The position numbers and the translations under genes are program-made. The notes below the pieces were generated by a model. The model saw nothing but the letters and a program-made list of their open reading frames with translations. It was not told the DNA's origin and did no database searches. Of a stretch of DNA of 64,000 nucleotides, positions 3,000-27,170 are shown one piece after another; the stretch's first letter is position 1; the number at the start of each line of letters is the position of its first letter. The DNA lies in the NCBI GenBank assembly GCA_964646765.1, contig CAZYIA010000001.1:341621-405620 (forward strand). The letters run 5' to 3'. Source of the stretch: an uncultured Candidatus Saccharibacteria bacterium (GTDB lineage: Bacteria > Patescibacteriota > Minisyncoccia > Phycocordibacterales > UBA9973).

Positions 3000-3680
3000 A
3001 TCGGCGCGAGCACGAGTAAGCATTTCGCTTACGGTATTTGGCTTCACCCGCGCGAGAACGATAGGATACGCAAGAAAAATAACTTTTCCAAACTGCGCGA
3101 TTCGATTTGAGAGAAAATTATCTTCGAGCCAGTAAGTTAACCCGGAAGATTCTTTTAGTCGAAAGAGTTCTTCGAAACCACCAACTTTTTCGTATGCACT
3201 TCGGCGTACAGCAAAACTGGGACCCCAAAATTCCGGATCACGTTTGATACAATTTTTATTCCAAAGGAGAATTTGCGCGATAGTTGATGCAGGCACAATA
3301 AGCGCATTACCAGTGTAGATAACCGGAGAACCTACACCAACAACTTCTTGGTCTTCAAACTCCTTAGTTAGAGCTTCTACCCAATTTGAAGGCACAACAG
3401 CGTCACCATCGGTTGAAAGAATGATATCGCCCGTAACCCGAAGAAACCCTTCGGCTCGGGCATAGGCGGTACCTTTCGGACCATTATATTCATCAAGAGT
3501 AAGCCAAGGAAACTTTTTAGCGATCTCCACGGTTTTATCGGTACAGTTATGAGCTACCAGCACAACTTCGTTAGGTTTTTGTGTTTGCTGTTCAATTGAC
3601 CGCAGACACCGCTCAATCAGCTTTTCTTCATTGTGGGCAATCAGAAATACAGATACCTTTGGTATAGTTGGCGTTACCAT
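2943..3680 (-). CDS. Family 2 glycosyltransferase
   Basis: GT2-like segments VSVFLIAHNEEKLIERCLRSI and DGD. The start was trimmed to an internal Met to avoid overlap with tRNA-Trp. Confidence 0.65.
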   Translation of the reverse strand: MVTPTIPKVSVFLIAHNEEKLIERCLRSIEQQTQKPNEVVLVAHNCTDKTVEIAKKFPWLTLDEYNGPKGTAYARAEGFLRVTGDIILSTDGDAVVPSNWVEALTKEFEDQEVVGVGSPVIYTGNALIVPASTIAQILLWNKNCIKRDPEFWGPSFAVRRSAYEKVGGFEELFRLKESSGLTYWLEDNFLSNRIAQFGKVIFLAYPIVLARVKPNTVSEMLTRARADLEDRKIFEEKIKYHRKKN

Positions 3681-3709
3681 CACAATAGTATATACTCTCG
3701 ACGACATTT

Positions 3710-3780
3710 GGGCGATTAGTTTAGTGGTAGAACAACGGTCTCCAAAACCGTTGGCGGAAGTTCGATTCTTCCATCGCCCG
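3710..3780 (+). tRNA. tRNA-Trp(CCA)
   Basis: Acceptor stem GGGCGAT/ATCGCCC. Anticodon stem ACGGT/ACCGT with loop CTCCAAA. T-arm GGAAG-TTCGATT-CTTCC. Confidence 0.8.
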
Positions 3781-3935
3781 CGATAGTGAGCCAACTGCTT
3801 GGCTCACGTGGAAGGATCGAAAGGCTTTTCCATACGAGGCTCTGCGAGGCGGAAAAGCACCTGCTGGTGTAATCGACGATTCTCCTCGCCCGCACAAAAT
3901 AGAAAAAGCCCCTCTCAGGGCTCTTTCTTGTAGCT

Positions 3936-4097
3936 TTATTTTGATTGCTTGAAAACCACGTGCTTGCGGAGCTTTGGAGAGTACTTTTTGAGTTCAAGCT
4001 TGCGCTGAATACCTTTCTTACTCTTCTTTGGCTTCTTAGTATAGAGGGTTTCCTTGCTCTCTTTACTGGTGATTTTGATGACGTTATCTTGAGACAT
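3936..4097 (-). CDS. rpmG: 50S ribosomal protein L33. This is a short ORF that is absent from the supplied ORF track.
   Basis: Manual translation gives MSQDNVIKITSKESKETLYTKKPKKSKKGIQRKLELKKYSPKLRKHVVFKQSK. The motif KLELKKY.PK.RKH is L33-like. The Cys4 zinc ribbon is absent. Confidence 0.65.
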   Translation of the reverse strand: MSQDNVIKITSKESKETLYTKKPKKSKKGIQRKLELKKYSPKLRKHVVFKQSK

Positions 4098-4117
4098 GGA
4101 AGGAATGTAACACACTT

Positions 4118-5140
4118 TTAGAGCCTTCGCAAGCGATTACGAACGTACTCGATAATAAAGTTTTTCACATATGCGAGCGGGCGAATCACCAAGTCGTGCG
4201 CATGAAGATACGCAAAGTCTTTTCCGCCAAATCCTCGTTTAAAAATCGAAATTGGGTAAAAACGATGCTTGATTTGCCCAAGAGGAGCGACACCCCAGAA
4301 GTTGTGCACTTTGATTCCACGACGCTTTGCCTCTCGTATTGCTTCCCATTGGATCATGTACGCTCCTGGATGCTTACGGCCCGCCTCGGTACTTGCACCA
4401 TAATGATATGCAGATTCAGTGCCATAAAAAATAATAAAAGCGTAAGCTAAAACATCACTTCCAAGTGTTGCTGTATAGAGCACTGCATGGCCACTCTCGG
4501 TAAAAATTTTGAATTGCTCATGTAAAAATTCGTAGCTAAACGGCACAAAGCCTTGGCGTTTTGCCGTCTCACATTGCACATCATAAAACGGACGAATAGC
4601 ATTAGGGTCAGTTGTTTGCGATACGGTAATTCCCTCTTTGATACCTTTTCTAATTTCTGCTCGAGTTTGCTTACGCATGTTCGCCATCAAAGCCTCTTCA
4701 TCAAGCGTAATATCGAGCTGTGAAGTAAGTTCAGCGTGTAAATGCGATGGAGCTCCTCGGAAACCAAGACGAGAGAAGAGTGCTCTCGTTTCTGACGTAT
4801 CTTCAATTTGTGGTCTGACGCGAACAAATGCGGCCTGCTCTTTGTGAGCGACCTCTTTCATAGTCGCAAGAATAGCAGCAACAACCTGATCATTATGCCA
4901 ATCAATAATTGGCCCCGCGGGAACCGTTACATAGATTGCCCGACGGGACTTCTCAACCACAAGAAGCATGACACCCACAAGCTTTTCGTTATCATAAAAA
5001 CCAAATCGATGAATGGATTTTTTTAGTGCCTTATGAAACTCACCCCAGTACCACGAATGCAAGAAGTTGGCTTCAGGCCGCGTAGTAAGAAATGTTTCCC
5101 ATTCTGCCTTATTGATTATTTCTTTTGAGAGGATTGCCAT
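4118..5140 (-). CDS. FemAB-family peptidoglycan interpeptide bridge aminoacyltransferase
   Basis: FemAB/FemX-like sequence over the full 340 aa. It lies next to other cell-wall genes. Confidence 0.7.
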   Translation of the reverse strand: MAILSKEIINKAEWETFLTTRPEANFLHSWYWGEFHKALKKSIHRFGFYDNEKLVGVMLLVVEKSRRAIYVTVPAGPIIDWHNDQVVAAILATMKEVAHKEQAAFVRVRPQIEDTSETRALFSRLGFRGAPSHLHAELTSQLDITLDEEALMANMRKQTRAEIRKGIKEGITVSQTTDPNAIRPFYDVQCETAKRQGFVPFSYEFLHEQFKIFTESGHAVLYTATLGSDVLAYAFIIFYGTESAYHYGASTEAGRKHPGAYMIQWEAIREAKRRGIKVHNFWGVAPLGQIKHRFYPISIFKRGFGGKDFAYLHAHDLVIRPLAYVKNFIIEYVRNRLRRL

Positions 5141-6294
5141 GTCGTTACGTATTTGCTGATATACTCTGCGATTTCTGGAGTAATTCCTATGTGCGTCGGC
5201 AGGTTCATGCTCTTTGTCGCTAACTGCCGCGCCCCAAGGGCTGTGTGGCCTTGATCAAACGCGGCCCAGAATCGTTTCGGCGAAACAGGGACATCATACC
5301 AGATATCAGAAAGATAGATGTTTTGTGAATGAAGATAAGCAACGAGAGCACCACGGTTGTCAATGACAAGCGGAAAACGTAGGCACGTAGAAAATGGAGT
5401 GAGAGGATTAGAACCAAAATACTTTTCATATACACCAGCAATTGTTCGACGATGTTTAAGCTGTGCCTGTAGCTCATTGAATCGCAATAAAACTAATCCC
5501 GCATACCAACCTGGCAACCCTTGGACTGGAGATTTTTCTAGTGTCGCAACCGGTTTTGGAAATAAACCGATGAGTGCAAAAAAACGGTGAAGTATTTTAC
5601 CGAGACCAAATGAATATGTTTGACGAACTAAAAGCGTAACTAGAGGATATAAACGGTCACGCAATTGTTGCTTAAAGGATACAGAAGTAAAAACAGGAGG
5701 TTCTAGGGTGAACTTTGTATTTCGAATAACTAGCGCTCCCCCGGAAACCGCATCGAGAATTTTATCTTGAGAAAATGAAAATACGACGCAGTCGCCAACC
5801 GTACCCATGACTTTTCCATTTACATATGTTCCCCCAACACTGTGAGCAATATCCTCAATGAGCACAAGATTTTTCTCAGCGCAGATTTTCTGAATTGGCT
5901 CAATATCGGCAGGATATCCCAACGTATTTTGGATAATAACAGCTTTGGCATCTGGATGAACTACGAGAACGTTAGCAAGTTCTTGAGCGGAAAAGTTAAC
6001 GTTTGGAGCGGTAATATCAACATACACTGGCACAAGCCCTGCATGCGAAACAGCAATAACTACTGCGGCACAAGTATACCCGGAGACAATAACTTTTGAC
6101 TGCGGCGGCAACTTTGCCGCAAGGAGTGCGAGCGTTAGAGCTTCACGGCCTTTATAGGTAAGATACGCTCTACCCCCATACTCTCGCTCTAAATATGCAC
6201 TAAGCATTTCCTTATTATTTTCAGCACGCGCAAAAAACGTTTGCCAGGCAAACTGCCACGTATAATTTGATCCAATTGAATTAAAAACCACCAT
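5116..6294 (-). CDS. DegT/DnrJ/EryC1/StrS family PLP-dependent sugar aminotransferase
   Basis: The family-typical layout is present, including FSFSQDKIL, which carries the putative Lys that binds PLP. Confidence 0.7.
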   Translation of the reverse strand: MVVFNSIGSNYTWQFAWQTFFARAENNKEMLSAYLEREYGGRAYLTYKGREALTLALLAAKLPPQSKVIVSGYTCAAVVIAVSHAGLVPVYVDITAPNVNFSAQELANVLVVHPDAKAVIIQNTLGYPADIEPIQKICAEKNLVLIEDIAHSVGGTYVNGKVMGTVGDCVVFSFSQDKILDAVSGGALVIRNTKFTLEPPVFTSVSFKQQLRDRLYPLVTLLVRQTYSFGLGKILHRFFALIGLFPKPVATLEKSPVQGLPGWYAGLVLLRFNELQAQLKHRRTIAGVYEKYFGSNPLTPFSTCLRFPLVIDNRGALVAYLHSQNIYLSDIWYDVPVSPKRFWAAFDQGHTALGARQLATKSMNLPTHIGITPEIAEYISKYVTTWQSSQKK

Positions 6295-7000
6295 GACTGA
6301 GAAATGATTGTACCTGATTAAAAACTTCTTGTGGATGCGTTACATGCGGAGAATGTCGTGCACCGTCAATAATTACAAGTTGGGAGTTCGCAATTCCCTC
6401 CTTAAAACGGTATCCATCGGAAAGTGGAGTGGAACCGTCATTCTTACCCCAAATAAGTAACGTGGGTGCTGTAATGGCTTGAAACACCGGAGCGAGGTCA
6501 ACACTGATCAGATTCGCCATGGTTTTACGCATTACTGGCGTAGCTTTTTCGTAATCGTGCTCGCGAGCCAGTTTATAGAGAATACGGCGCAAAAATTCGA
6601 TGCTGCCCAACAGCTTGCCGACACTCGCCAGAGTGCCAAAGATTGCACGCTTCAGACGAATGCGGAAGTCGTTGTGATATATACCCGCCGCTCCAATCAG
6701 TATAAGCGCGCGAACTTTTTCGGGATATCGGCTGGCAAACAATGTACTAATTCTTCCTCCGTTGGAGTGTCCCAACAGAATCACTGGTTCCGTTTCGTCT
6801 TTCAACGTATCTTTGAGCCACACAACATAATCATCGAGCGTCCACGGCCGATCAATTGGTGCGGTAAGTCCGGGCACCGAAAGAAGTACTGGCGTATACC
6901 CCGCTTTCGTAAGAAGTTCATAAAACTCTTTCCAGCCACTCGTGTCATAAAGCCAGCCATGTACGATATAGATTTTTTTTGTTTTTTCTAAAGCCCCCAT
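6281..7000 (-). CDS. Alpha/beta hydrolase
   Basis: Nucleophile elbow GHSNGG. The overall length and pattern fit the alpha/beta hydrolase fold. Confidence 0.6.
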   Translation of the reverse strand: MGALEKTKKIYIVHGWLYDTSGWKEFYELLTKAGYTPVLLSVPGLTAPIDRPWTLDDYVVWLKDTLKDETEPVILLGHSNGGRISTLFASRYPEKVRALILIGAAGIYHNDFRIRLKRAIFGTLASVGKLLGSIEFLRRILYKLAREHDYEKATPVMRKTMANLISVDLAPVFQAITAPTLLIWGKNDGSTPLSDGYRFKEGIANSQLVIIDGARHSPHVTHPQEVFNQVQSFLSHGGF

Positions 7001-8253
7001 TGTGCTCGACGATCATCCCAAATCTTTCCGCGACGGCAGAGAAGATTTCGATCGTTTGTATTATACAAAAGATGTTCGATCACACCTTCAAGAAACCGGG
7101 CTCCTTTAAATAAAAGTGCTTCACCTCCCTGAATGTTTTTTTTGAGATACTCTAACGCTTCTTTTGGCGTTTCAAATGAGACTATATCTTTCGCGAAATC
7201 TGATTTAAAAAGTATTGGGTAGGTATACTCATGCAGCCGTGGTCCAACGAGCACAACGCGCTCAGGTGCAAAAGCAATGATATGCTGGGCGAGTTTTTCA
7301 TGCTCTTCGCGCTCATAGGCACCGAGCTCAATCATGTCGCCCAACACCAGCCACTTATGTTCGGCTGGATACTCTTTAAACAGAGTAAGCATGGCAACCA
7401 TACTCTTAAGCGACGCATTGTATGAACTATCGATAATGGTAAGGCCGTTAATTCCTTGTAGAATTGTCCCTCGAGACGGCGGCAAGTGGAAACCTGGAAA
7501 TGACGGATTGAAAATAATTCCTAACTCGCTGCAAAGTAATTTCGTCATACAAACAGCTACTGCGACTTCTTTCGGTACCAGCGCCGGAACTTGTATTGTT
7601 TCCCCATCTTTAAATATGAAATGAGTTTCAGATTTTGTGAGCTGATAGGAAGAAAGTTCTTCGCTTGGTCGCATCTCAATAACTTTTTTTGCTTTGGTCC
7701 GAGAAAGTTCTCCAATGATTTCTGGAACATCCCCATTCACCAACACTAGATCTTGTGTTTTTTCTATAAAATATCCAAACTCATGCGCAGTTGCTTGCTC
7801 GATAGTCTCACCTTGTTTTGATACAAAATTGCGACTATGTGTTCTACTCAAACTTCCCCACAAAGTTATGTGTGGACGAAGCAGCTCTGCAAGAAATTGA
7901 CCTTCTCGCGGTCGCTCACAGTCAGCTTCAACAACATATATTTTTTCTTCAGGAAGTTTTGTAAAAAGTTGGAAAGGTGCACGAATGAAAAAAATCGGCC
8001 ATTCGATGAGGCTAAATGATTTTCGTTCCAATCCTAAAATATGAAATGGAATGCCAAAAGCGCTATTGGCATGATGAGAATAGATCGCCTTACCGCCAAA
8101 TTGCGTTTCCACCATATGGAGCAAGGTTGTTTTGCCAGAAGAGCCAGTAATGACAATGATTTTGGGCTGCCAATGGCGAAGTCGAATTGCAGCAAAAAAA
8201 CGGAAATATCCGGCAACAAAAAAATAGAAAAACCGCTTTAGCCTCGAAACCAT
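6988..8253 (-). CDS. Mur ligase family protein (MurF-like)
   Basis: P-loop IIVITGSSGKTT plus Mur ligase middle and C-terminal-like regions. Confidence 0.7.
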   Translation of the reverse strand: MVSRLKRFFYFFVAGYFRFFAAIRLRHWQPKIIVITGSSGKTTLLHMVETQFGGKAIYSHHANSAFGIPFHILGLERKSFSLIEWPIFFIRAPFQLFTKLPEEKIYVVEADCERPREGQFLAELLRPHITLWGSLSRTHSRNFVSKQGETIEQATAHEFGYFIEKTQDLVLVNGDVPEIIGELSRTKAKKVIEMRPSEELSSYQLTKSETHFIFKDGETIQVPALVPKEVAVAVCMTKLLCSELGIIFNPSFPGFHLPPSRGTILQGINGLTIIDSSYNASLKSMVAMLTLFKEYPAEHKWLVLGDMIELGAYEREEHEKLAQHIIAFAPERVVLVGPRLHEYTYPILFKSDFAKDIVSFETPKEALEYLKKNIQGGEALLFKGARFLEGVIEHLLYNTNDRNLLCRRGKIWDDRRAQWGL

Positions 8254-8374: not shown

Positions 8375-11300
8375 CTACTGTCCTTCTAACACTGCATTCA
8401 CCTGTGTACGTGTAACCGGACCAAAGTAGCCTTTAGCTGGAGAAATACGGTGAGCTTTTTGATAAGCAGCTAGGGCGCGCGTTGTTTTGCGGCCAAAGAA
8501 TTTCGTTTCGTGGCCAGGAGAACCTCCACCAGTTGTTGCTATCGAGAAATTATTATCATTGAGATACTTTTGAAGCAGCAGCACGTCTTGGTCAGTCATT
8601 CCCTCTTTCAAATTCTTTAAGAAGAGATGTGGCTGTTTTTTTTCAGGCTGCGGTGATTGAGTATCTGTTTTTACCGAACCAATAGTTCCCCCAATTGGAG
8701 AAAGTGGGCTGCTAACTAAAGTAACAATACCTCCACCAGAACTACCAGAACTTAATCGGAACGAGTAGCTACTATCATTACCAACTTCAACCCAGCCAAG
8801 CGCTGACTCACTATCACCTTCATTACTTACCGTGCTTACAATCCAATAATAGGTTCCGGGTAAAAGTGTTTGCCCTGGATTGCCTTGATAGTAAGTTCCA
8901 CCAAGAGCTTGCTGGCCAACCCTAAAGGAACTTGGGCCTGCTTCACCTAAAGCAGATTCGTACGTGATGAGTGTGTTGTTATCCATCAATGGATACGTAT
9001 TTCCAAGTGCAAACATATAGCCAACATGGGCAAGAGGATCGGTATGAGATGTCGTAAAGGTAAATGTTGGCTGAGTATCGTGGGTACTACCATTATTTAT
9101 TAGTGTTGCTGGACCAAGATTCGTTGGCACTCCTGGTGTACCAGCACAAGTAACATGAATAGTTACCATACCAATATCGGTGCCGCCGTGTTGGTCATCA
9201 ATGTTGTAGGTAAAACTGTCTGTGCCACAAAAATCAGAATCTGGAGTGTAGAATCCCACTCCAGTTCCTGGCGAAATAGAAGCTTCACCATGAGCTGCCT
9301 GGGTTTCTAAGCCATCTCCCAAAGAGTCGCCATCAGGATCAGTGTCGTTATCAAGAACTGCAATCATTACGCCTTCACGCTGTGGTGTGGTAACTTCATC
9401 ATCAACAGCAACTGGATTTTGATTCGGACAAGTAACAGTCACATGTACCGTAGCGTTAGCTGTCGCGTTTGAGGTATCAGAAATTGTATACGTAAATGAG
9501 TCAGAACCACAGAAATCTTCTTGGGGAGTATACAGAATGCTGCCATCAGAATATTCTGTATTAGCGTGACCAGAAAAACCAACGCCAGTGAGGGTAATTG
9601 CATCAAGGTCAGGATCAGAGTCATTTGCCCGAACATCGAATAGTGTTGGTGTGTTTATAGCAATAGTAAACGAATCATCAACGGCAAGTGGAGAATCATT
9701 AACCGGCGGTGGAGGCGGTGCAATATCACAGTGAACAGTAATCGTCACTGTCGCAGTAGCTGTATCAGTTCCATCAGATACCGTGTACTCAATCGTATCG
9801 TCACCGCAGAAATCTGTGTTAGGCGTATAGCTAAATCCCGAACCCGTACTCGTAGCATCGCCATGATGGGTAGTAAAATCAGTTATAGAAAGAGAATCAT
9901 CATCCGCGTCGGAGTCATTTACCAGAGCATCAAGTGCGTTCAATGAGGAATTTTGTTCTACAGTATATGCGTCATCAACAGCAACTGGTGCAGTATTTCC
10001 CCCACCACCTCCACCACCAAGTGCATCAACAGTGAGGCTCGCAGTATCAGTATCGATAGAAAATGCTGTGGTGCCGCCATTGGTAGTTGTATCTACGCTG
10101 GCTCCATGGCTACCGCTTGTTTGATCCCAAGCTCGGAAAGTAATAATGTCGCTAATAGTACCGCTATACCCTGGGTTTGGCTCACAATAAATGCGATCAG
10201 TCGTTGAAAGTAGCTGCGCAGAATCGTCAGCTACAGCGCCAAATAAATTCCACGTACTACCAGAATCAGTCGAGTAACGACAGGTTGTGTTAACGGAATC
10301 TATTCCAGTCACAGCGATACCGTACAATGCTCCTGAATCAACATCGGTAACATTATCCAATCCACCAATAATAGTAGCCGAGTCTACTAAATTAGAAACT
10401 AATGTTCCTACCGCACCACTAGGTGCGCCATCACCTTCAGTAACCGAATTAAAGACTGGGCTTTTTGAGTTGTCTAGCACGGGCGCATCGTTTACTGGAG
10501 TTACAAAAAGACCAATAGTATCCGTAGTATTTGAAAACGCAGTCGTCCCGCCGTTAATAGAAGGATTAGCTGTCCCCCCGTCACTACCGCTTGTTTGATC
10601 CCAAGCCCTGAAAGTTAATGCTGTGAATGATCCACTAGCATCGGCATTCGGTTGGCAGTAGATGCGGTTATCTGCATCCGCGGTAAGCAATCGAGCTACT
10701 GTAGCCGACACGGAGCCGAACAAAGACCATGTGGTTCCACCGTTTAGTGAATAGTAACAAGTTAGGCTGGAATCCTGCGCAATAACTGCGATACCAAGCT
10801 GGGCGCTACTATCACTATCTGTTACGTTATCAACTTGCCCAACAGGAGAAGCGAAGTCAACCAAAGATGCCACAAGCGTGCCAACTGCACCGCTTGGAGC
10901 TGAAGCATCTTCACTTACTGATGAGAGAGTTGGGCTCTTGGAAGCGTCGAGAACTGGTGCATCGTTTACTGAAGTACCTGTCATAGCCTTACTACCTGAT
11001 ATAGACAAAGCGCCGTCGCTAACGTTTGTTGTAATAGTAAAGTTGCTGCTGAAATTTGCCGACGGAGTAAACGTAAGGGCCGCAAGCAGTGTATTCACAT
11101 CCGCAATTGCACCACTGGCAGTCCAAACGCCAGTACCGGCGTTATACGTTGAGGTGACGGCGTTTGAAGTGGCGGTATTAAAACTTCCAGCTGCTGCATT
11201 TGAAAGAGTGAGTGTAGCGGTAACGTTTGCACTATCTACATCGCTTACAATAATATCGGTCAAATTCTGAGCCACATCTTCAGTGTATGTTTCAGCAGCA

Positions 11301-13141
11301 CTTAAGTTTGTAGCTGTCGGTGCATCATTAACCGCAGTACCGGTCACAGCTTTTGCTCCTGTCACCGCAGCAGCAACGCCATCACTTACTGATGTACTGA
11401 TAACAAAATTACTATTGAAGTTTGCCGTTGGAGTAAAGGTAACACTTGCAAGTAAAGTATTCACATTGGCAATTGCACCACTGGCAGTCCAGACACCAGT
11501 ACTAAACGTTGAGGTCACTGCTCCGGAAGTCCCTGTTGAGAGTGAACCGGCCGAAAGATTTGAAAGAGTCAACGTGGCAGTAACCGAGGAACTATCAACA
11601 TCTGTTGCCACAATATCTATGAGATTGAGTGGTGTATCTTCTGTGTATGTTTCAGCGGCGCTCAAGTTAGTTGCAGTCGGAGCATCGTTAACAGCTACTC
11701 CCGTCATTGCTTTCGAGCCAGTTACGCTTAGTGAACCATCACTTACGCTCGTGGTAATTGTAAAAGGACTATTGAAGTTAGCTGCGGGAGTAAACGTAAG
11801 TGCTGCAAGTAATATATTTACATTCGCAATTGCACCACTGGCAGTCCAAACACCGGTGCCGGCATTGTATGTAGATGTTACGGCCCCAGAAGTAGCAGTA
11901 TTAAAACTTCCGGCTGCAGTATTAGAGAGAGTGAGCGTCGCGGTAACGTTTGCACTATCTACATCACTCACAACAATATCGGTAAGATTAAGCGAAGTAT
12001 CTTCAGTATAGGTTTCTCCGGCACTAAGATTAGTTGCTGTCGGAGCGTCGTTAACCGCTACTCCTATCATTGTCTTTGAACCAGTTGCACTCAACGAACC
12101 ATCGCTCACGCTTGTCGTAATAGTAAAAGAGCTATTAAAATTCGTTGCCGGAGTAAATGTCAGCGCTGCTAACAACACATTCACATCCGCAATCGCACCA
12201 CTCGCAGTCCAAACACCAGTACCGGCGTTATACGTTGAGGTGACGGCGTTTGAAGTTCCGGTGTTGAGACTTCCAGCTGCAGTATTAGAGAGTGTGAGCG
12301 TGGCGGTTATATTTCCCCCATCAACGTCACTCGCAACAATATCAGTTAGATTAAGTGGTGTATCTTCCGTATACGTTTCAGCAGCGCTTAAGTTGGTTGC
12401 AGTTGGAGCACTATTGGCTGGTTTTAAAATCACAGTAAGGACAGCTCCGTAACCAGCGTTTGTGTTAGCTGTTGCCGTCAAACTTCCAGTAGCTGTTGCA
12501 CTTGTTTGAAGAAGGTAATCACTTTCCATTGAGATACCTGAAGTATTTGGCGTAGTAAGAGAGGAAAGATCGGATGACTCTGTCATGCCCGCAGGTGGTG
12601 TCCATGTACTAGAATGTTCATACTCAAAAAAACTCAACACCATAGCTCCATTTACGCTTGGAGTAACACTACCAACGGTGTGTGAGAGACTAGACGCAGT
12701 ATCTGTTCCCAAGTACGTATCTATCGGGCTACTCGTATCCCCTCCGGAAAATGCCATTGTGCTGCCGACAACACCAGTGTTCGTGCTTACTGTCCAAGTA
12801 TAGGAACTCGGCTCTGATCCAGTTGCAACCTTGTAATACACAGAGAGCCTTGTTGAAGTATTATTTGTATTAAGTACCGTTTGTATAGTCGTCCAGCCGG
12901 AAGGAGCAGTTATAGTTGCAGTTGATGAACGCACTGAAACTGCCGTAATAAGTATGTCGCCAGACGTTGTGCCAGTTGGTTTAGCTATTGAAAGACTCCC
13001 ACTTGTTCCGGTATCTGTGCTTACTGAACGATAACTGAGAGCCGCAAAAGCATTACTTGGCTTAAAAACAAATACGCAAAATGCAATGACAAGAAAGATA
13101 AATGGTGAGATTCTTTTCATGATTAAACTACTGTCGAGCAA
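8375..13141 (-). CDS. Giant secreted cell-surface protein of about 1580 aa. It carries tandem NDAP/cadherin-like repeats, sialidase-like (BNR-like) regions and a C-terminal peptidoglycan-binding domain.
   Basis: The N-terminal signal peptide is MKRISPFIFLVIAFCVFVFKPSNAFA. There are four tandem units of about 122 aa. The C-terminus has a PG_binding_1-like motif, LLLQKYLNDNNF...[11 protein letters not shown]. The true start may be the second Met. Confidence 0.8.
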   Translation of the reverse strand: MLDSSLIMKRISPFIFLVIAFCVFVFKPSNAFAALSYRSVSTDTGTSGSLSIAKPTGTTSGDILITAVSVRSSTATITAPSGWTTIQTVLNTNNTSTRLSVYYKVATGSEPSSYTWTVSTNTGVVGSTMAFSGGDTSSPIDTYLGTDTASSLSHTVGSVTPSVNGAMVLSFFEYEHSSTWTPPAGMTESSDLSSLTTPNTSGISMESDYLLQTSATATGSLTATANTNAGYGAVLTVILKPANSAPTATNLSAAETYTEDTPLNLTDIVASDVDGGNITATLTLSNTAAGSLNTGTSNAVTSTYNAGTGVWTASGAIADVNVLLAALTFTPATNFNSSFTITTSVSDGSLSATGSKTMIGVAVNDAPTATNLSAGETYTEDTSLNLTDIVVSDVDSANVTATLTLSNTAAGSFNTATSGAVTSTYNAGTGVWTASGAIANVNILLAALTFTPAANFNSPFTITTSVSDGSLSVTGSKAMTGVAVNDAPTATNLSAAETYTEDTPLNLIDIVATDVDSSSVTATLTLSNLSAGSLSTGTSGAVTSTFSTGVWTASGAIANVNTLLASVTFTPTANFNSNFVISTSVSDGVAAAVTGAKAVTGTAVNDAPTATNLSAAETYTEDVAQNLTDIIVSDVDSANVTATLTLSNAAAGSFNTATSNAVTSTYNAGTGVWTASGAIADVNTLLAALTFTPSANFSSNFTITTNVSDGALSISGSKAMTGTSVNDAPVLDASKSPTLSSVSEDASAPSGAVGTLVASLVDFASPVGQVDNVTDSDSSAQLGIAVIAQDSSLTCYYSLNGGTTWSLFGSVSATVARLLTADADNRIYCQPNADASGSFTALTFRAWDQTSGSDGGTANPSINGGTTAFSNTTDTIGLFVTPVNDAPVLDNSKSPVFNSVTEGDGAPSGAVGTLVSNLVDSATIIGGLDNVTDVDSGALYGIAVTGIDSVNTTCRYSTDSGSTWNLFGAVADDSAQLLSTTDRIYCEPNPGYSGTISDIITFRAWDQTSGSHGASVDTTTNGGTTAFSIDTDTASLTVDALGGGGGGGNTAPVAVDDAYTVEQNSSLNALDALVNDSDADDDSLSITDFTTHHGDATSTGSGFSYTPNTDFCGDDTIEYTVSDGTDTATATVTITVHCDIAPPPPPVNDSPLAVDDSFTIAINTPTLFDVRANDSDPDLDAITLTGVGFSGHANTEYSDGSILYTPQEDFCGSDSFTYTISDTSNATANATVHVTVTCPNQNPVAVDDEVTTPQREGVMIAVLDNDTDPDGDSLGDGLETQAAHGEASISPGTGVGFYTPDSDFCGTDSFTYNIDDQHGGTDIGMVTIHVTCAGTPGVPTNLGPATLINNGSTHDTQPTFTFTTSHTDPLAHVGYMFALGNTYPLMDNNTLITYESALGEAGPSSFRVGQQALGGTYYQGNPGQTLLPGTYYWIVSTVSNEGDSESALGWVEVGNDSSYSFRLSSGSSGGGIVTLVSSPLSPIGGTIGSVKTDTQSPQPEKKQPHLFLKNLKEGMTDQDVLLLQKYLNDNNFSIATTGGGSPGHETKFFGRKTTRALAAYQKAHRISPAKGYFGPVTRTQVNAVLEGQ
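10980..12445 (-). repeat. Four near-identical tandem repeats of about 366 bp inside the giant gene's coding sequence
   Basis: The DNA motif ...gcagtccaaac.ccagtaccggcgttatacgttgaggtgacggc... recurs at about 11120, 11480, 11840 and 12210. The encoded protein repeats begin NDAPTATNLSA(A/G)ETYTED. Confidence 0.75.
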
Positions 13142-14495: not shown

Positions 14496-14542
14496 GAAAC
14501 CTGAGTGAAATTATGGAAAATAGTTTTGTGCGCCGGGAAGGA

Positions 14543-14557
14543 ATTTCTCGGCTTACA
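14543..14557. repeat. 15-bp direct repeat of the tRNA-Tyr 3' region. It is a putative attL/attR core.
   Basis: GTGCGCCGGGAAGGA is identical at 14543..14557 and 18876..18890. Confidence 0.5.
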
Positions 14558-14663
14558 GCCGCAGTACACCTTTTCGGCGAATTCAAAACAAGTTTCTCAT
14601 TTGCAGCGAAAAGCTCTTAGAATCCTTCCCGCGACTGAAGCAGTTCAGTCGCTCCGGCCACGT

Positions 14664-14689
14664 AAAAAACGGCCTTGAAGCCGTTTTTT
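14664..14689. terminator. Bidirectional terminator hairpin
   Basis: AAAAAACGGC-CTTGAA-GCCGTTTTTT. Confidence 0.55.
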
Positions 14690-14692
14690 AGT

Positions 14693-14890
14693 GTGTCTCT
14701 ATTGTACCAAGTTAGAACCTATTTCCAAAATAAATAAAGCGGACGAATTTTTGCGAAACAATTTTTCTGGGGAAAAGGATTCGCAAAAATTCGGCTGATT
14801 TTTTTTGAAATTCGGACTCGCCCGCGCGGAGGAGGGGTCTGGGGAGGAATCCGCGCGGGCTTCGGCTTTTTGTTTTTTGGCGGGGCGGGC
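14693..14890. repeat. IR1-L, a 198-bp perfect inverted repeat whose partner is 16809..17006
   Basis: Comparing the two arms by eye, they are exact reverse complements. Each arm contains a GC-rich hairpin, GCCCGCGCGGA...TCCGCGCGGGC, followed by a T-tract. Confidence 0.9.
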
Positions 14891-14928
14891 AAATAGAAAA
14901 AACAGCGAAAAAATGATAAAATGAATTT

Positions 14929-15423
14929 ATGGAAAATCCAGAGTTAAATCACGAAAAACCTCCTATTGCTGTTGAGAAAATATCTCACATTTTTTCGTCT
15001 AATGCCGAAAAGCGTATTTGTGTTGTTGGTGCAAGCTGTGTAGGAAAATCTACTTTACTTCGGTTTTTGCCAGAAGCTGTTGATATGGACGATTTGCTTT
15101 TCGGCAACAAACAAAAAGGAATTGAGCCATTACTTACACAACAAGAAAGAGATTATGTCTGTGGGCCTTGGACACCAGAAGTCGGTCAATTTATGACCAA
15201 GAAAGCCCACGAACTTATAAAAATTGAAGCAGGTCATCCAGTTTTCGGCACAATCGTTTTTCCATCAGATTTAGTAATTGAAGTGTCTGTTCCCGACGAT
15301 ATTTTACGAGAAAGGATTAGGCGAAGAAACTCAAATGAGCAAGATGTTTTTAACATGAAAGCACAAATTGAATCTGAAATTGAAAAGTCGGGTATAGAGA
15401 AAATTGTTATTGAAAATATATGA
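14929..15423 (+). CDS. Small P-loop NTPase (kinase-like)
   Basis: Walker A motif VVGASCVGKST. The protein is 164 aa. Confidence 0.45.
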   Translation: MENPELNHEKPPIAVEKISHIFSSNAEKRICVVGASCVGKSTLLRFLPEAVDMDDLLFGNKQKGIEPLLTQQERDYVCGPWTPEVGQFMTKKAHELIKIEAGHPVFGTIVFPSDLVIEVSVPDDILRERIRRRNSNEQDVFNMKAQIESEIEKSGIEKIVIENI

Positions 15424-16043
15424 AAATAATTCTCGCCTCAGATTTAAGTTTTCTTTTGAAATACGGTTATGATTTAACTGGCATTCCAAAGTCCGAAATG
15501 AAAATCGGATATATTACAACCGCTTCAAAAGGATCAAGAGATACGGCATTTCTTGAAAAAGTTAAAAATGCGATGAAAGAAAACGGTATTGATTTTGAGG
15601 AAATTGATATTGAGGGTAAAAGCAAAGATGAAATACTTAACTTTTTCAAGAACAAAAACATTATTCATGTTGAGGGCGGAAATACTTTTTATTTGCTAAA
15701 AGCAATTAGAGAAAGTGGTTTTGCAGAGGCACTGAAAGAATTATTGAACGAGGGGAAAATTTATATCGGCACAAGTGCGGGAGCGTATGTTATGTGTCCA
15801 ACTATTGAAGTAGCAAACTGGAATGAAACTGGTAGAGATAGATTTGGTTTAACTGATTTTTCAGCGTTAAATTATGTACCTTTTGTTTTGAAAGTCCATT
15901 ACAAAGACGAAATGGAAAATACAGTGAAAGAAAAAATGAGAACTCTAAAATATCCGCTTAGAATTTTGCGAGACGGACAAGGGATTTTGGTCGAAAATGG
16001 TGAATATGAATTTGTCGGAGATAATCCCGAAGTAATTTTTTAA
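15420..16043 (+). CDS. Peptidase family S51 (dipeptidase E / cyanophycinase-like)
   Basis: The family-typical HVEGGNTFYLL motif and IGTSAGA (Ser nucleophile region) are present. Confidence 0.6.
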   Translation: MKIILASDLSFLLKYGYDLTGIPKSEMKIGYITTASKGSRDTAFLEKVKNAMKENGIDFEEIDIEGKSKDEILNFFKNKNIIHVEGGNTFYLLKAIRESGFAEALKELLNEGKIYIGTSAGAYVMCPTIEVANWNETGRDRFGLTDFSALNYVPFVLKVHYKDEMENTVKEKMRTLKYPLRILRDGQGILVENGEYEFVGDNPEVIF

Positions 16044-16047
16044 ATTT

Positions 16048-16788
16048 ATGATTAAGCCCATTATTCTTGCAAAAGGAAATTTTAAGCCAGAAGATTTAAT
16101 GACAACAGTCAGTGAATCTAATAGGAAAATTGATCCGAACAGAGAAAATCAATTAAACACTCTTTGGGCGGAAAAAGAGAAGAATGCCAAAGAAAAGGGC
16201 AAATTAATATATAACGGACTTTCTTATCGCTTAAATAGCTTAAAAGCTGAAAATGGTAAATTGTTTTTAGATTTTGGAATTTTTGATTTTAAAACTAGAG
16301 AATGTTTACCGGAAACTCCCGGATTTTACGAAACGACGGAAGAATATTGGCGTAAAGGATGCCATACTATTGCTACAGTTAAAACCTCTGACGATAGGTA
16401 TTTAATGGTGGAACTTTCTGGAAAATCAATGAATAAAAACACAATTGAATTTTTGGGTGGCATAATGGAAACAGAACCACCAATAAAATTAGGTAAGGAC
16501 ATTTTCCATTCGTTATATAAAGAATTGGAAGAGGAAGCGTTTATTACTGAATCAGATATTGCCGATTCTAATTTAAAAATGGTTTATATAAATTGGAATA
16601 CAAATGTTGGTTTTTATTTTGAGATTTTATTAAAACTTACTTCAGAACAATTACAAGAAAGATTTAATGAACAAACAAAAGAAATTGATATTAAATCTCT
16701 AAAAATTATGTCTCGCCCAGAATATATCAATGTGTTAGAGAATCATAACCCTAATAAACAATTTTTAGCGAAGCAAATAGAGATTTAA
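16048..16788 (+). CDS. Hypothetical protein with a weak Nudix-like KELEEEAF segment that is not convincing
   Basis: The ORF is 246 aa. It is the third gene of the IR1-flanked cassette. Confidence 0.35.
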   Translation: MIKPIILAKGNFKPEDLMTTVSESNRKIDPNRENQLNTLWAEKEKNAKEKGKLIYNGLSYRLNSLKAENGKLFLDFGIFDFKTRECLPETPGFYETTEEYWRKGCHTIATVKTSDDRYLMVELSGKSMNKNTIEFLGGIMETEPPIKLGKDIFHSLYKELEEEAFITESDIADSNLKMVYINWNTNVGFYFEILLKLTSEQLQERFNEQTKEIDIKSLKIMSRPEYINVLENHNPNKQFLAKQIEI

Positions 16789-16808
16789 TAACCCCTTTTA
16801 GATTTTAA

Positions 16809-17006
16809 GCCCGCCCCGCCAAAAAACAAAAAGCCGAAGCCCGCGCGGATTCCTCCCCAGACCCCTCCTCCGCGCGGGCGAGTCCGAATTTCAAAAAAAA
16901 TCAGCCGAATTTTTGCGAATCCTTTTCCCCAGAAAAATTGTTTCGCAAAAATTCGTCCGCTTTATTTATTTTGGAAATAGGTTCTAACTTGGTACAATAG
17001 AGACAC
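16809..17006. repeat. IR1-R, a 198-bp perfect inverted repeat
   Basis: It is the reverse complement of 14693..14890. Confidence 0.9.
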
Positions 17007-17148
17007 CAGAATTTTACTAATCGGTTTTTTGGAAGCCCCAATGCGGGACGCGCGAAGCGCGTCCCAAGGATTCCCGCCGATTTTTCCTAATGAATTTGGA
17101 GCGTCGCCTTCGGCGACGCGCACTGTTTTCTCGCCAAGAAGCAGGTTC
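17004..17148. repeat. IR2-L, a 145-bp perfect inverted repeat whose partner is 18733..18877
   Basis: It is the exact reverse complement of IR2-R. It contains hairpins GGGACGCGC-GAA-GCGCGTCCC and GCGTCGCC-TTCG-GCGACGC. It overlaps IR1-R by 3 bp. Confidence 0.9.
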
Positions 17149-17344
17149 AAAATCAGAAGCAATTTTGACTCAGAGTATTTGCTTTGATACAAAAAGAATT
17201 TTTGCCTTTTTTCTAAAAGTAGTATAATGACCTTGCGCAAACTTACGGAAGGTCTATTTTAATGGCCGTCTTGGACTTATCTAGATCTTCTAGGTTTGCG
17301 CACCAGGGCGGCCATTTAAGTTTTATCAATTAATTTTTATTTCT

Positions 17345-18919
17345 ATGCAAAAATTCTTTTTGTATGCTCGCAAGTCAACCGATGTTGAAGATAAACAAGT
17401 GTTATCAATAGACGCTCAACTCACCGAATTGCGGGAGTTCGCCAAGAGAGAAAATTTAGTCATCGCCCGTGAGTTTATAGAAAAACAATCTGCTAAAATT
17501 CCAGGTCGTCCCGTTTTTAATGAAATGATGAAGTGTATTGAAAAGGGCGATGCAGATTGTATTCTCTCTTGGCATCCAGATCGTCTTGCCCGCAATTCAG
17601 TTGATGGTGGCAAGATTATTTACTTTTTAGACATCGGATTGCTTGCGAGCCTCAAATTCCCACAGTTTTGGTTTGAAAGTACGCCACAGGGCAAATTTAC
17701 GCTTTCTATGGCATTTGTACAAAGCAAATACTATGTAGATTCTCTTTCCGATAACACGAAAAGAGGACTTCGCCAAAAAGTACGCATGGGAATATTCCCA
17801 AGCCAAGCGCCAATCGGTTATATAAACGACAGTCGCACCAAAACGATTGTGGTAGAAAAGAAGAAAGCAAAAATCTTGCGCTTGGCTTTTGAACGATATG
17901 TGAAAGGAAATCAAAGGTTAGAGGATATCGCAACTTTTTTGGCAAAGAACGGAATATCTACGCGTTCCGGAAAGAGAATCTCAAAAACGAGAGTGGCTTT
18001 CATTTTGTCCAATCTGTTCTATGTCGGACTTTTTAACTATGCCGGTGAACTTCACGAGGGTAAGCACGAGCCAATCATTTCAAAGAAACTTTTTGATGAA
18101 GCACAGGAAATGCTGAAACTTCGTGGACAACCAGAGCGTAAACCACAAAATGAACCCCAATCTTTCTGCGGACTCATTTCCTGTGCCTCATGCGGGATGA
18201 TGATAACTGGCGAATACAAGGTGAAGAAACAGAAAAATGGCAATGTCCACAATTACACCTACTACCACTGCACGAAAAAACGCAAAGATATGAAATGTCC
18301 CGAACCTTGTATTCGGGAAGAAGAATTAGATCGCCAGTTATCATCTCTAATCAAAAAAGTTTCTTTGCCCAAAGACTGGGCGGAGGAATTGTTAAAAATG
18401 GCAGAAAACGAACATGGAAATTCCGCCCAGTCTTTGACTGCTTGTGTGAAAGAGAACGAAACAAAAATATCGGTCATTTCACAAAAGTTGGAGCGACTTC
18501 TTAATGGATATTTAGAGCAAGATATTGAAAAAGAAGTTTATCGCATAGAAAAAGCAAAACTTGTGTTGCAAAAGAAGTCGCTTGAAGAAGAAATGACCTC
18601 TCTTTCACACAAGCAGAATGATTGGCTCGAACCCTTTACCGAATGGGTGAAAGCCGCTCAATCATTGGACAAAATTGCTTCTGATGATGACCTTTTTGCA
18701 AAAAAGGTCAAAGCCAAAGAAATCTTTGGCTCGAACCTGCTTCTTGGCGAGAAAACAGTGCGCGTCGCCGAAGGCGACGCTCCAAATTCATTAGGAAAAA
18801 TCGGCGGGAATCCTTGGGACGCGCTTCGCGCGTCCCGCATTGGGGCTTCCAAAAAACCGATTAGTAAAATTCTGGTGCGCCGGGAAGGATTCGAACCTTC
18901 GCAGCCCGAAGGCGCTTGA
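17345..18919 (+). CDS. Large serine recombinase (resolvase/invertase catalytic domain, recombinase domain and zinc ribbon)
   Basis: Catalytic region YARKSTDVEDKQ..SIDAQ and W.PDRLARN. There is a Cys-rich zinc ribbon, CGLISCASCG...YYHCTKKRKDMKCPEPC. The 3' tail is encoded by IR2-R and runs antisense into tRNA-Tyr. Confidence 0.85.
   Translation: MQKFFLYARKSTDVEDKQVLSIDAQLTELREFAKRENLVIAREFIEKQSAKIPGRPVFNEMMKCIEKGDADCILSWHPDRLARNSVDGGKIIYFLDIGLLASLKFPQFWFESTPQGKFTLSMAFVQSKYYVDSLSDNTKRGLRQKVRMGIFPSQAPIGYINDSRTKTIVVEKKKAKILRLAFERYVKGNQRLEDIATFLAKNGISTRSGKRISKTRVAFILSNLFYVGLFNYAGELHEGKHEPIISKKLFDEAQEMLKLRGQPERKPQNEPQSFCGLISCASCGMMITGEYKVKKQKNGNVHNYTYYHCTKKRKDMKCPEPCIREEELDRQLSSLIKKVSLPKDWAEELLKMAENEHGNSAQSLTACVKENETKISVISQKLERLLNGYLEQDIEKEVYRIEKAKLVLQKKSLEEEMTSLSHKQNDWLEPFTEWVKAAQSLDKIASDDDLFAKKVKAKEIFGSNLLLGEKTVRVAEGDAPNSLGKIGGNPWDALRASRIGASKKPISKILVRREGFEPSQPEGA
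18733..18877. repeat. IR2-R, a 145-bp perfect inverted repeat
   Basis: It is the reverse complement of 17004..17148. It ends within the CACCA 3' end of tRNA-Tyr. Confidence 0.9.
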
Positions 18920-18958
18920 TTTACAGTCAAGTGCGATTGACCACTCCGCCACCGACGC
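18873..18958 (-). tRNA. tRNA-Tyr(GTA), type II, with CCA encoded
   Basis: Acceptor stem GCGTCGG/CCGGCGC. Anticodon stem CTTGA/TCAAG with loop CTGTAAA. There is a long variable arm. T-arm GAAGG-TTCGAAT-CCTTC. The 3' end is ACCA. Confidence 0.8.
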
Positions 18959-26541: not shown

Positions 26542-26613
26542 GGCCTAGTCGCCAAGTGGTAAGGCAAGGGTCTGCAAAACCCTTATACGGCGGTTCGATT
26601 CCGCCCTAGGCCT
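26542..26613 (+). tRNA. tRNA-Cys(GCA)
   Basis: Acceptor stem GGCCTAG/CTAGGCC. Anticodon stem AGGGT/ACCCT with loop CTGCAAA. T-arm GGCGG-TTCGATT-CCGCC. Confidence 0.8.
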
Positions 26614-26620
26614 CAACAAC

Positions 26621-26655
26621 AAAAAACAACTAGAGAATACCTCTAGTTGTTTTTT
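26621..26655. terminator. Bidirectional intrinsic terminator between convergent tRNA genes
   Basis: AAAAAACAACTAGAG-AATAC-CTCTAGTTGTTTTTT. Confidence 0.65.
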
Positions 26656-26659
26656 GTTG

Positions 26660-26741
26660 TGCCGGGGAGAGGACTTGAACCTCCATGCCTTGCGGCGCTT
26701 GCTCCTAAGGCAAGTGCGTCTGCCAATTTCGCCACCCCGGC
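26660..26741 (-). tRNA. tRNA-Leu(TAG), type II
   Basis: Acceptor stem GCCGGGG/CCCCGGC. Anticodon stem CTTGC/GCAAG with loop CTTAGGA. There is a long variable arm. T-arm GGAGG-TTCAAGT-CCTCT. Confidence 0.8.
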
Positions 26742-26761
26742 AAATTCTATTTAGTTTTGTG

Positions 26762-26842
26762 CCCAGGGCGGGAGTCGAACCCGCACGGCATTGCTGCCTG
26801 GGGATTTTAAGTCCCCTATGTCTACCAATTCCATCACCCGGG
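26762..26842 (-). tRNA. tRNA-Leu(TAA), type II
   Basis: Acceptor stem GCCCGGG/CCTGGGC. Anticodon stem GGGGA/TCCCC with loop CTTAAAA. T-arm GCGGG-TTCGACT-CCCGC. Confidence 0.8.
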
Positions 26843-26870
26843 CAAGAAGTTTTATTCTAGCAAAAAAATA

Positions 26871-27035
26871 AAATGCGAGGGATCTCCCTCGCCTCTCACT
26901 GTGCCGTCGCACAGTTCGGGCTGGACACCGCCTCACGATTTGCTCTGCTGAGCAAATATCGCTCCGGCGTTCGATCCCTACTCGCACGCCACGCAGGTGG
27001 CGTGCTTGGGCAGGACAAAGAGCGCTTCGCGATTT
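26871..27035 (+). other. Copy 2 of the duplicated structured element. It extends into a hairpin-rich segment that abuts tRNA-Lys.
   Basis: It is about 85% identical to 13227..13345 over roughly 95 nt. There are compensatory changes in two hairpins. The motif GTTCGATCCCTAC is identical to the T-loop and stem of the adjacent tRNA-Lys but in inverted orientation. Read on the minus strand, it ends in GCGAGGGA-GATC-TCCCTCGC followed by a T-tract. Confidence 0.4.
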
Positions 27036-27108
27036 GTCCGCCCAGTAGGGATCGAACCTACGACCGTACGCTTAAGAGGCGTCTGCTCTACCAACTGAGC
27101 TATGGGCG
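27036..27108 (-). tRNA. tRNA-Lys(CTT)
   Basis: D-arm GCTC-AGTTGGTA-GAGC. Anticodon loop CTCTTAA. T-arm GTAGG-TTCGATC-CCTAC. Acceptor stem CCGCCCA/TGGGCGG, with C1:G72 and a G27.A43 mismatch. Confidence 0.7.
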
Positions 27109-27170
27109 GATGTATCTAAATACAGGAGAGACTCTAACAAAAATACCCTTATTTTTCAATACTTATTTAC

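Follow-up and report, generated by a model that had tools for sequence, protein, structure and literature searches.

Large serine integrases of the phage type, such as the A118/LI, SPβ (SprA), φC31, and Bxb1 enzymes, combine a resolvase domain, a recombinase domain, and a zinc ribbon, and they recombine DNA conservatively, with no duplication of the target and a very short common core. Each uses one chromosomal attachment site (attB), and in the case of LI integrase the zinc-ribbon-domain motif lies 5 bp nearer the centre in attB than in attP, the site on the element (PMC3783163). A different arrangement characterizes the SSV-type "suicidal" integrases (SSV1, pTN3, pT26-2), which target tRNA genes and carry the site of recombination inside the gene that encodes them, such that integration alters that gene; a 2021 review describes recombinases with a site in their own gene for archaea only (PMC8371274). 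One report further links pTN3-type integrases to chromosomal inversions (PMC5495485). Here we describe a computational analysis of a locus in a 64,000-nt stretch of DNA (hereafter the window, to which all positions refer) from an uncultured Candidatus Saccharibacteria bacterium (GenBank assembly GCA_964646765.1, contig CAZYIA010000001.1), where nested inverted repeats, a large serine recombinase gene (R), and a three-gene cargo segment lie beside a gene for tRNA-Tyr. We estimate a probability of roughly 75% that this region is an integrated mobile element whose recombinase joins an α/β attachment site to the 3′ end of a tRNA gene, and whose attachment (att) region is duplicated in inverted orientation.

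A first-pass annotation, made from the letters of the window, had reported two pairs of exact inverted repeats, and both prove to be 100% complementary, bearing in mind that consensus collapse in short-read assembly can overstate such identity. The arms of the first repeat (14693-14890 and 16809-17006) are 198 nt long and match at E = 1.5e-110 in a BLAST comparison of the window with itself, and those of the second (17004-17148 and 18733-18877) are 145 nt long and match at E = 6e-79; this comparison revealed no further copies of either repeat within the 64 kb. From left to right we designate the arms a′ (α′, the left end of the element at 14693-14890, an exact reverse complement of 16809-17006), a (α, 16809-17006), b (β, 17004-17148), and b′ (β′, the right end at 18733-18877). 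As the annotation had stated, the two inner arms are contiguous and b′ ends at the CACCA of tRNA-Tyr: a and b share the 3 nt CAC (17004-17006), and b′ spans the final 5 nt of the tRNA gene. The same core recurs at the joint between the tRNA and b′ (18875-18877) and at the joint between a′ and its flank, where it forms, as GTG (14693-14695), the first 3 nt of a′. The α/β region, 340 bp in the window, is present twice, in inverted orientation, within an element of 4,185 bp (14693-18877). The terminus of a reads TTTTGGAAATAGGTTCTAACTTGGTACAATAGAGA immediately ahead of CAC and constitutes an attP-type half-site; on the minus strand this arm encodes a native recombinase tail, SLLYQVRTYFQNK followed by a stop codon, and b is an inverted spare copy of the 3′ end of R.

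The recombinase gene (17345-18919, plus strand) encodes a protein of 524 aa that has the motif YARKST near its N-terminus and the same domain set as the phage-type integrases, with matches to Resolvase (PF00239, 1.2e-19, residues 5-149), Recombinase (PF07508, 2.7e-17), and Zn_ribbon_recom (PF13408, 3.7e-8). Its best solved relatives are the C-terminal domain of A118/LI integrase (4kis, 3e-9) and SPβ integrase (9dxh, 2e-8), and the alignment with the latter extends to residue 426. The nearest named families, CcrB, XisF, and CcrC, all fall far under their cut-offs (118 versus 900 bits for CcrB). R is a genuine large serine recombinase, and the association between such an enzyme and the repeats that had been proposed from the window is correct.

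The integration target, tRNA-Tyr(GTA) (18873-18958, minus strand; Rfam tRNA, 62 bits), has a chromosomal body (positions 1-71) and a 3′ tail derived from the element, with b′ supplying C72-A73-CCA on the tRNA strand. The neighbourhood running from ClpB to tRNA-Tyr is represented by about 60 metagenome loci, most of them unoccupied, and in these empty tRNA-Tyr genes the sequence GGCGCAC is followed directly by an A-rich stretch, then by a terminator hairpin, and then by a conserved module resembling a tRNA 3′ end. Read on the tRNA strand from position 14695 downward, the left flank of the window has the same organization as the DNA downstream of empty tRNA-Tyr genes, as judged against some 20 metagenome loci. 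This match defines the insertion as 14693-18877 and identifies 14527-14692, which contains a terminator hairpin (14664-14689) and the tRNA-3′-end-like module, as native chromosomal DNA that formerly followed tRNA-Tyr and lies outside the element. We had also considered a left boundary at 14527-14545, where a copy of the tRNA-Tyr 3′ end could mark a larger island with a direct repeat, and we rejected it on finding that the module is native at empty sites. The arm a′ abuts native downstream DNA directly, with no displaced partial tRNA at this far end. The proposal that the repeats signal mobility rather than old duplications is upheld.

The open reading frame (ORF) of R crosses the joint with the target, a feature that the first-pass annotation did not record, as it did not record the range of about 20 tRNA species or the recurrence of this architecture throughout a family. 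Arm b′ encodes the protein from about residue 463 on; beyond the end of the element, 42 nt read from the antisense strand of tRNA-Tyr specify the last 13 residues (RREGFEPSQPEGA) and the stop codon. In the frame of R, β′ otherwise reads on into α′ as a conserved peptide, in which ILV is followed across the joint by SLLYQVRTYFQN and then K or R, and the position of the stop is likewise conserved; the β′/α′ joint sits 13-16 codons ahead of this native stop. The conserved native tail is LLYQVRTYFQN, written ILVSLLYQVRTYFQNK at the C-terminal end. Among the 120 closest homologues of R, the tail is of the tRNA-antisense type in at least 76 and native in at least 18, with an alternative native C-terminus in about 17%. 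The native tails include those of the nearest relatives of the window protein, P0002 and P0004 (88-93% identity), and P0003, in the same range of identity, carries a related tail, SLLNTARTYF, that was classed as "other" by the pattern used.

A protein search identified at least 7,887 homologues of R, thousands of them at 73-93% identity and nearly all from Patescibacteria, and the element appears to belong to a very large family in that phylum (Paceibacteria and relatives). Among 80 related loci taken from species-representative genomes (given L numbers here), 61 have an inverted repeat of about 147 nt around R, with arms that are 81-100% identical; one arm lies 200-350 nt upstream of R, and the other forms its 3′ end. 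A second, abutting repeat of 150-435 nt is present in all 12 loci that have an intact first repeat and sufficient flank. The nested a repeat meets b in L008, L017, L020, L021, L040, L051, L066, L074, L076, and L079, and L036 has it in mirror form; across these 11 nested loci, the inner arms always overlap by 3-8 nt. On the tRNA strand, the common layout is tRNA(1-71)/β-(R)-β′α′-(cargo)-α/downstream, with the β consensus CACCA.aA..GAACT.AacGGtTtTtt. Many related contigs break off within b or b′, their arms being exactly as long as assembler k-mers (55, 77, 99, and 141), and the repeat of about 147 nt routinely breaks assemblies. A phage origin for the family was considered and rejected, as IMG/VR contains no relatives.

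A tRNA gene or a transfer-messenger RNA (tmRNA) gene, convergent with R, abuts its 3′ end at 63 of the 66 loci that have sequence beyond R, and the targets span about 20 tRNA species as well as tmRNA. On the tRNA strand, β begins with CACC(A) at tRNA position 72 in every case, which means that the tRNA body ends at position 71 and that the element supplies C72, A73, and CCA. Lineages with a common β terminus occupy different tRNAs. Of 237 free genes belonging to targeted species, 208 (88%) have CAC at positions 72-74, compared with 7 of 95 genes (7%) belonging to species that are never targeted. None of 61 tRNA-Cys genes (CTC) is occupied, though these lie beside tRNA-Leu genes that frequently are; tRNAs for Trp and Ser (CGC), Pro (GAC), and His (CCC) are also spared. 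CAC is present at all 10 readable joints between a and downstream DNA, the three joints of an element have only CAC (or CACCA) in common, and no flanking direct repeat is formed. The crossover would therefore lie within C72-A73-C74, at CA or AC. In the window itself, the cluster of genes for tRNA-Cys, tRNA-Leu(tag), tRNA-Leu(taa), and tRNA-Lys(ctt) at 26542-27109 is unoccupied. One or the other of these two tRNA-Leu genes is occupied in L007, L016, L024, L026, L035, L036, L037, L064, and L165, and the adjacent tRNA-Cys is never occupied where the cluster is visible.

On the tRNA side, the T-loop motif GTTC occurs exactly 15 nt ahead of CACC at 57 of 57 joints, and at the α terminus GTTC occurs 19 nt ahead of CACC in 11 of 11 elements, with the consensus tgaAAATAGGTTCtAaCttgGTa.aATAaAc followed by CACC. 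The side downstream of the tRNA is merely A-rich, and β has a conserved terminus of its own. By analogy with LI integrase, the spacing of 15 versus 19 nt suggests recognition of the T-loop region by R, in which case a broad range of tRNA targets would be explained.

Comparison of related genomes, one of the checks proposed with the first-pass annotation, reveals the element in several alternative states. State I, which is that of the window and of the majority of loci, has the order downstream/α′-cargo-α/β-R-β′/tRNA. In State II (tRNA/β-R-β′/α′-cargo-α/downstream), observed in L036 and L165, R is flipped such that it is co-directional with the tRNA and its native tail is restored; the segment as a whole is absent at the empty tRNA-Tyr sites. 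State III, in which β-R-β′ lies between two tRNA genes (tRNA/β-R-β′/tRNA), is found in L013 (arms 88% identical) and L053 (98.9%), and probably also in L011, where the spacing of two flanking tRNAs points to it and the arms were undetected. Recombination of the internal joint with a second tRNA gene would be expected to yield this arrangement. State IV has both joints intact and no tRNA (L009, L164), as expected for a non-integrated form. At L156, a 53-nt β/β′ hairpin beside α′ is all that remains of a decayed copy. L164 additionally contains a 1343-nt inverted duplication (909-2251 and 5033-6375, 99.9% identity) in which the 3′ two-thirds of R flank the cargo; this represents either coexisting flip-flop isomers or an assembler walk round a dumbbell-shaped graph.

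We propose that R recombines the α/β site of the element with the 3′ end of a tRNA gene by a crossover in the core defined above. The tRNA body would be joined to β, gaining CACCA and a terminator-like hairpin, and α would be joined to the DNA formerly downstream of the tRNA. Of the two copies of α/β, one lies across the 3′ end of R (β′α′) and the other upstream of R (αβ). Integration through the copy at the R end would yield the outer arms a′ and b′ and leave the inner a/b joint intact, and the use of one of two inverted copies in this manner would produce nested perfect repeats that abut with a 3-nt overlap. Because the joint lies inside the R gene, the same event would exchange the native last 13 residues (SLLYQVRTYFQNK) for tRNA-antisense residues. 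The R and cargo segments, each situated between long inverted repeats, could then flip, with a flip of R regaining the native tail, and the intact internal joint could recombine with a second tRNA gene. Arms of 145-435 nt fit homologous recombination better than site-specific recombination. Either the tail exchange or the inversion may have a regulatory role, and the element presumably has a circular free form. The terminator-like hairpins in b (17101-17119, plus strand) and in b′ (18780-18762, minus strand) are oriented toward transcripts coming in from the core side, and the β hairpin beside the tRNA appears to stand in for the displaced native terminator.

Several points weigh against this interpretation. 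We infer catalysis by R at the joints, and likewise excision, the circle, and inversion, from assembled sequence rather than from any direct view of these events. The att regions of the family measure 300-580 bp, as against the roughly 50 bp needed by a serine integrase, and the duplication is therefore not accounted for by site function alone. No candidate recombination directionality factor was seen, so that excision is unexplained, and no contig with a native tail could be shown to be circular: L081, L163, and L164 have no terminal overlap, and L081 and L163 end inside repeats. The GTTC offset here is 4 bp rather than the 5 bp of LI integrase. The GGTTC of the α terminus also codes for Arg-Thr (AGA/CGA ACC) on the other strand, and the same terminus overlaps an outward promoter-like box; the reading of GTTC as a binding site is weakened by both. 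The codon-position entropies of the α′ tail (0.79/0.77/0.97) are weakly biased toward third positions, in a test that is itself weakly informative. Finally, the aminoacyl-tRNA synthetase genes carried as cargo by L017 and L036 may be chromosomal DNA trapped between two α ends.

Among other explanations, it is unlikely that the locus is a programmed inversion switch in which R acts as an invertase that flips its own gene, the cargo, or both (phase variation), the tRNA being incidental. Such a switch would account for perfect inverted repeats bracketing both unique segments, for the occurrence of R in both orientations relative to the tRNA across genomes (L036, L165), for the two types of C-terminal tail that are common among close homologues, and for L164, which holds R both ways round on either side of one cargo. 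The invertases of known switches (Hin, Gin, Pin), however, are proteins of about 190 aa with a C-terminal helix-turn-helix that act on short sites of about 26 bp, placed around a segment whose direction alters gene expression, whereas R is an integrase-type protein of 524 aa and the arms measure 145-198 nt in the window and 145-435 nt across the family. In addition, the outer ends and the inner joint follow the logic of att sites, with a CAC core that is native to the target tRNAs, and the entire segment is an insertion relative to empty sites. A flip of the cargo would leave its context the same for at least 198 nt on each side, and the cargo is unrelated between loci. The active inversion suggested by the first-pass annotation thus holds insofar as R is flipped between genomes (L036, L165), but what the window contains is a completed tRNA integration and not a dedicated switch. 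Nor does it contain the transposition intermediate that had been offered as a further possibility, given that integration is complete and that the a/b joint is an intact attP-type α/β site.

We consider it less probable still that two independent elements with terminal inverted repeats lie side by side, an autonomous b-R-b′ and a non-autonomous a′-cargo-a, each inserting at CAC-type sites. The b-R-b′ unit does occur between two tRNAs without a′ or a (L013, L053), a miniature b/b′ hairpin of 53 nt lies beside an a′ terminus in L156, and the arms of α vary in length while those of β are fixed. Against these observations, a is present and abuts b at the core wherever b is intact and the flank suffices (12 of 12 loci), and the reading frame of R passes from β′ into α′, where its tail and stop are conserved, which makes α and β parts of one functional unit. 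A search of other Paceibacteria loci, about 1.2 Mb in all and restricted by contig ends, yielded no orphan a′-cargo-a. An assembly artefact, whether from repeat collapse, a chimeric repeat, or a fold-back chimera, is hardly credible. The repeats do break short-read assemblies at arm lengths equal to k-mers, and the 1343-nt duplication of L164 may be an assembler walk; yet the same architecture recurs in dozens of independent assemblies from different pipelines, and its junctions make biological sense, in that the tRNA tail is intact, the protein tail is conserved, and the core rule is obeyed. In several related loci the arms are 95-99% identical, which cannot come from reuse of one sequence and establishes that the two copies are physically distinct. 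The artefact that had been named as an alternative when the repeats were first noted is accordingly not borne out.

An integrated tRNA-directed element is hence our preferred reading, and its likeness to the phage-type integrases extends to conservative recombination, in which the target is not duplicated and the common core is very short, and possibly to a motif that is about half a helical turn nearer the centre on the chromosomal side than on that of the element. It departs from them in occupying about 20 tRNA species and tmRNA rather than one attB, in placing the site inside the R ORF, and in having an att region of 300-580 bp that is an inverted duplicate; the window element also has no phage genes and no evident directionality factor. 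With the SSV-type integrases it has in common a site inside the gene of the enzyme, a tRNA gene as target, and a change to the enzyme gene on integration. The chromosomal inversions linked to pTN3-type enzymes resemble the double-tRNA states of the present family, and it is possible, though we hold the idea only tentatively, that in this family bacteria have a counterpart, based on a serine recombinase, of the archaeal "suicidal" integrases, with recognition of the universal T-loop and acceptor end (and hence potential entry into any tRNA or tmRNA gene that has C72-A73-C74), a tail swap, an inversion that restores the enzyme, a spare inverted site able to attack another tRNA gene, and consequent tRNA-to-tRNA inversions and shuffling of genes in Patescibacteria. 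The archaeal enzymes are tyrosine recombinases, reported from archaea alone, whose gene is split into two fragments, whereas R is a serine recombinase and members of its family exchange only the last 13-16 codons and keep an inverted spare 3′ end.

Other elements share parts of this organization. tRNA islands and tycheposons are likewise small, cargo-carrying elements at tRNA 3′ ends in streamlined genomes, and they too restore the tRNA. They use tyrosine integrases, one tRNA each, and direct repeats of partial tRNA; the window element has a serine recombinase, repeats no tRNA segment, replaces C72-A76, and belongs to a family that uses many tRNA species. The SCC elements (SCCmec), with their Ccr recombinases, are also small cargo cassettes, inserted by a large serine recombinase where a conserved gene has its 3′ end, and Ccr enzymes are not known to need a separate directionality factor. 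Their target is rlmH (orfX), their repeats are usually direct, they have no internal inverted att copy, and their ORF does not cross the site. IS607-family elements encode a small serine recombinase with an N-terminal DNA-binding domain, which R does not resemble: its domain order is that of an integrase, and the IS607-family model scores 19.8 bits against a cut-off of 110. The yeast 2-micron plasmid, with its FLP recombinase, and plastid genomes have two long inverted repeats and two unique segments that invert mutually, and FLP is encoded in one of the unique segments. FLP is a tyrosine recombinase that serves copy-number amplification of a replicating plasmid, whereas the window element has no replication gene and its repeats double as integration sites.

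We see four candidate roles for the duplication of the att region. It could provide a spare native 3′ end that inversion would bring back, a site still active in secondary recombination with other tRNA genes, or symmetric transcriptional insulation of the R segment; by analogy with the 2-micron plasmid, it might also permit a flip-flop.

No published description of such an element was found in the full-text literature, in a search covering open-access papers, and recombinases and integrases go unmentioned in a survey that was devoted to the tRNA genes of 95 complete Patescibacteria genomes. The element is apparently an undescribed yet widespread variant of serine-recombinase integrative elements. 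If our interpretation is correct, it defines an abundant family of mobile elements in Patescibacteria, the first serine recombinase known to target a generic tRNA 3′ end, and a bacterial case of a recombinase with its site in its own gene. It would also provide these reduced genomes with a mechanism for gaining genes (restriction-modification systems, toxins, transporters, aminoacyl-tRNA synthetases) and for inversions between tRNA genes. Because contigs end in β, the repeats explain a recurrent cause of fragmentation in metagenome-assembled genomes. Genome engineers could, moreover, be interested in a recombinase for which a simple core rule opens many natural tRNA 3′ ends.

The cargo segment of the window (14891-16808, plus strand; 1918 bp, 32% GC) contains three genes, and their earlier description as a P-loop NTPase, an S51 peptidase, and a protein of no assigned type agrees with our results, with the first match being weak. 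The P-loop NTPase-like gene (14929-15423, plus strand) matches AAA_18 under the Pfam cut-off, the Peptidase_S51/PepE-like gene (15420-16043, plus strand) matches Peptidase_S51 at 1.3e-33, and the third gene (16048-16788, plus strand) has no family match. PADLOC yielded no convincing match that would identify this cargo as a defence system. The cargos of related elements are mutually unrelated and occur in either orientation; they include a restriction-modification system, a zeta-toxin-like kinase with an HD protein, a NYN nuclease, a transporter, a pilin-like protein, and aminoacyl-tRNA synthetase genes, together with genes of no recognized type. In L017 the cargo (2324-7510) includes a split gene of the TrpRS/TyrRS type and a DDE transposase, and in L036 (9957-15605) it includes two genes for class II aminoacyl-tRNA synthetases of the Asp/Lys/Asn type.

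The α terminus contains an outward promoter-like box, TTGGAA-N16-TG.TACAAT (14701-14728, minus strand, with a mirror copy at 16971-16998 on the plus strand), that was identified in a consensus scan. The terminus holding it is conserved in 11 of 11 elements, the promoter itself being a consensus match only. An imperfect palindrome of 33 + 33 nt, CGGACGAATTTTTGCGAAAC...GATTCGCAAAAATTCGGCTG, lies inside the α arms (14732-14805 and 16894-16967) and is also present in L021, L066, L081, and L097, elements that are otherwise divergent.

Between b and R lies a collapsed remnant of an inverted recombinase gene (17149-17205, minus strand). It includes a short repeat, c (17187-17205), that is the reverse complement of the first codons of R (17347-17365) and is conserved in 50 of 60 loci. 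The remnant and its repeat c join with b and a in a minus-strand ORF (16962-17240) in which c is fused to the 3′ tail of R, the frame being open through β′ and α′ by construction. We considered this ORF as a conserved regulator and rejected that assignment, finding that its upstream part has stops or no start in many loci, and we treat it as a relic.

Alignments place a promoter-like −10 box for R, TATAAT, at 17223-17228 (plus strand), followed by a structured mRNA leader of about 110 nt (approximately 17235-17344) with a 19-bp stem (approximately 17256-17274 and 17303-17321). In an alignment of 38 loci, RNAalifold finds compensatory changes in 21 of 26 predicted pairs, and G-U pairs occur on the sense strand only. 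The leader has no match in Rfam and is a candidate new cis-regulatory RNA. It may pair with an upstream segment as a pseudoknot, which is a visual impression only; a column-wise search of the alignment, in which gaps interfered, found no such helix. The identity of GCGCACCAG in the leader with the tRNA-Tyr/β joint had suggested a guide resembling a bridge RNA, an idea that we rejected after comparing the leaders of 29 loci with their own and with other tRNAs, for which the mean longest matches are 4.0 versus 3.9 nt in the sense and 4.0 versus 4.1 nt in the antisense orientation.

The conserved module that lies downstream of tRNA-Tyr in the window (14527-14660, plus strand) also follows tRNA-Trp (3782-3830), and it is found after tRNA-Tyr in L087, L092, L095, L107, L109, L113, L119, L136, L138, L141, L142, L147, L159, and L160. 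It is composed of a terminator hairpin, a copy, in inverted orientation, of the acceptor 3′ strand of the tRNA itself, a conserved hairpin of the GAGC..CAACTGCTTG..GCTC type, and a likewise inverted copy of the T-arm of that tRNA. The module covaries with the neighbouring tRNA across genomes, and no Rfam family matched it; it may represent a small structured RNA, or an element that acts in processing or as a decoy. In L083-L162, tRNA-Tyr is linked to ClpB in either orientation, in roughly equal numbers of genomes, and this mixture may be a trace of local inversions. A lone joint remnant of the α/β type lies beside the 3′ end of ClpB in L165 (312-364), with no recombinase there, and probably represents an element that has decayed where tRNA-Tyr usually lies. 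Directly upstream of the region described here, the window encodes a predicted surface protein of 1588 aa with tandem repeats of about 100 aa (8375-13141, minus strand).

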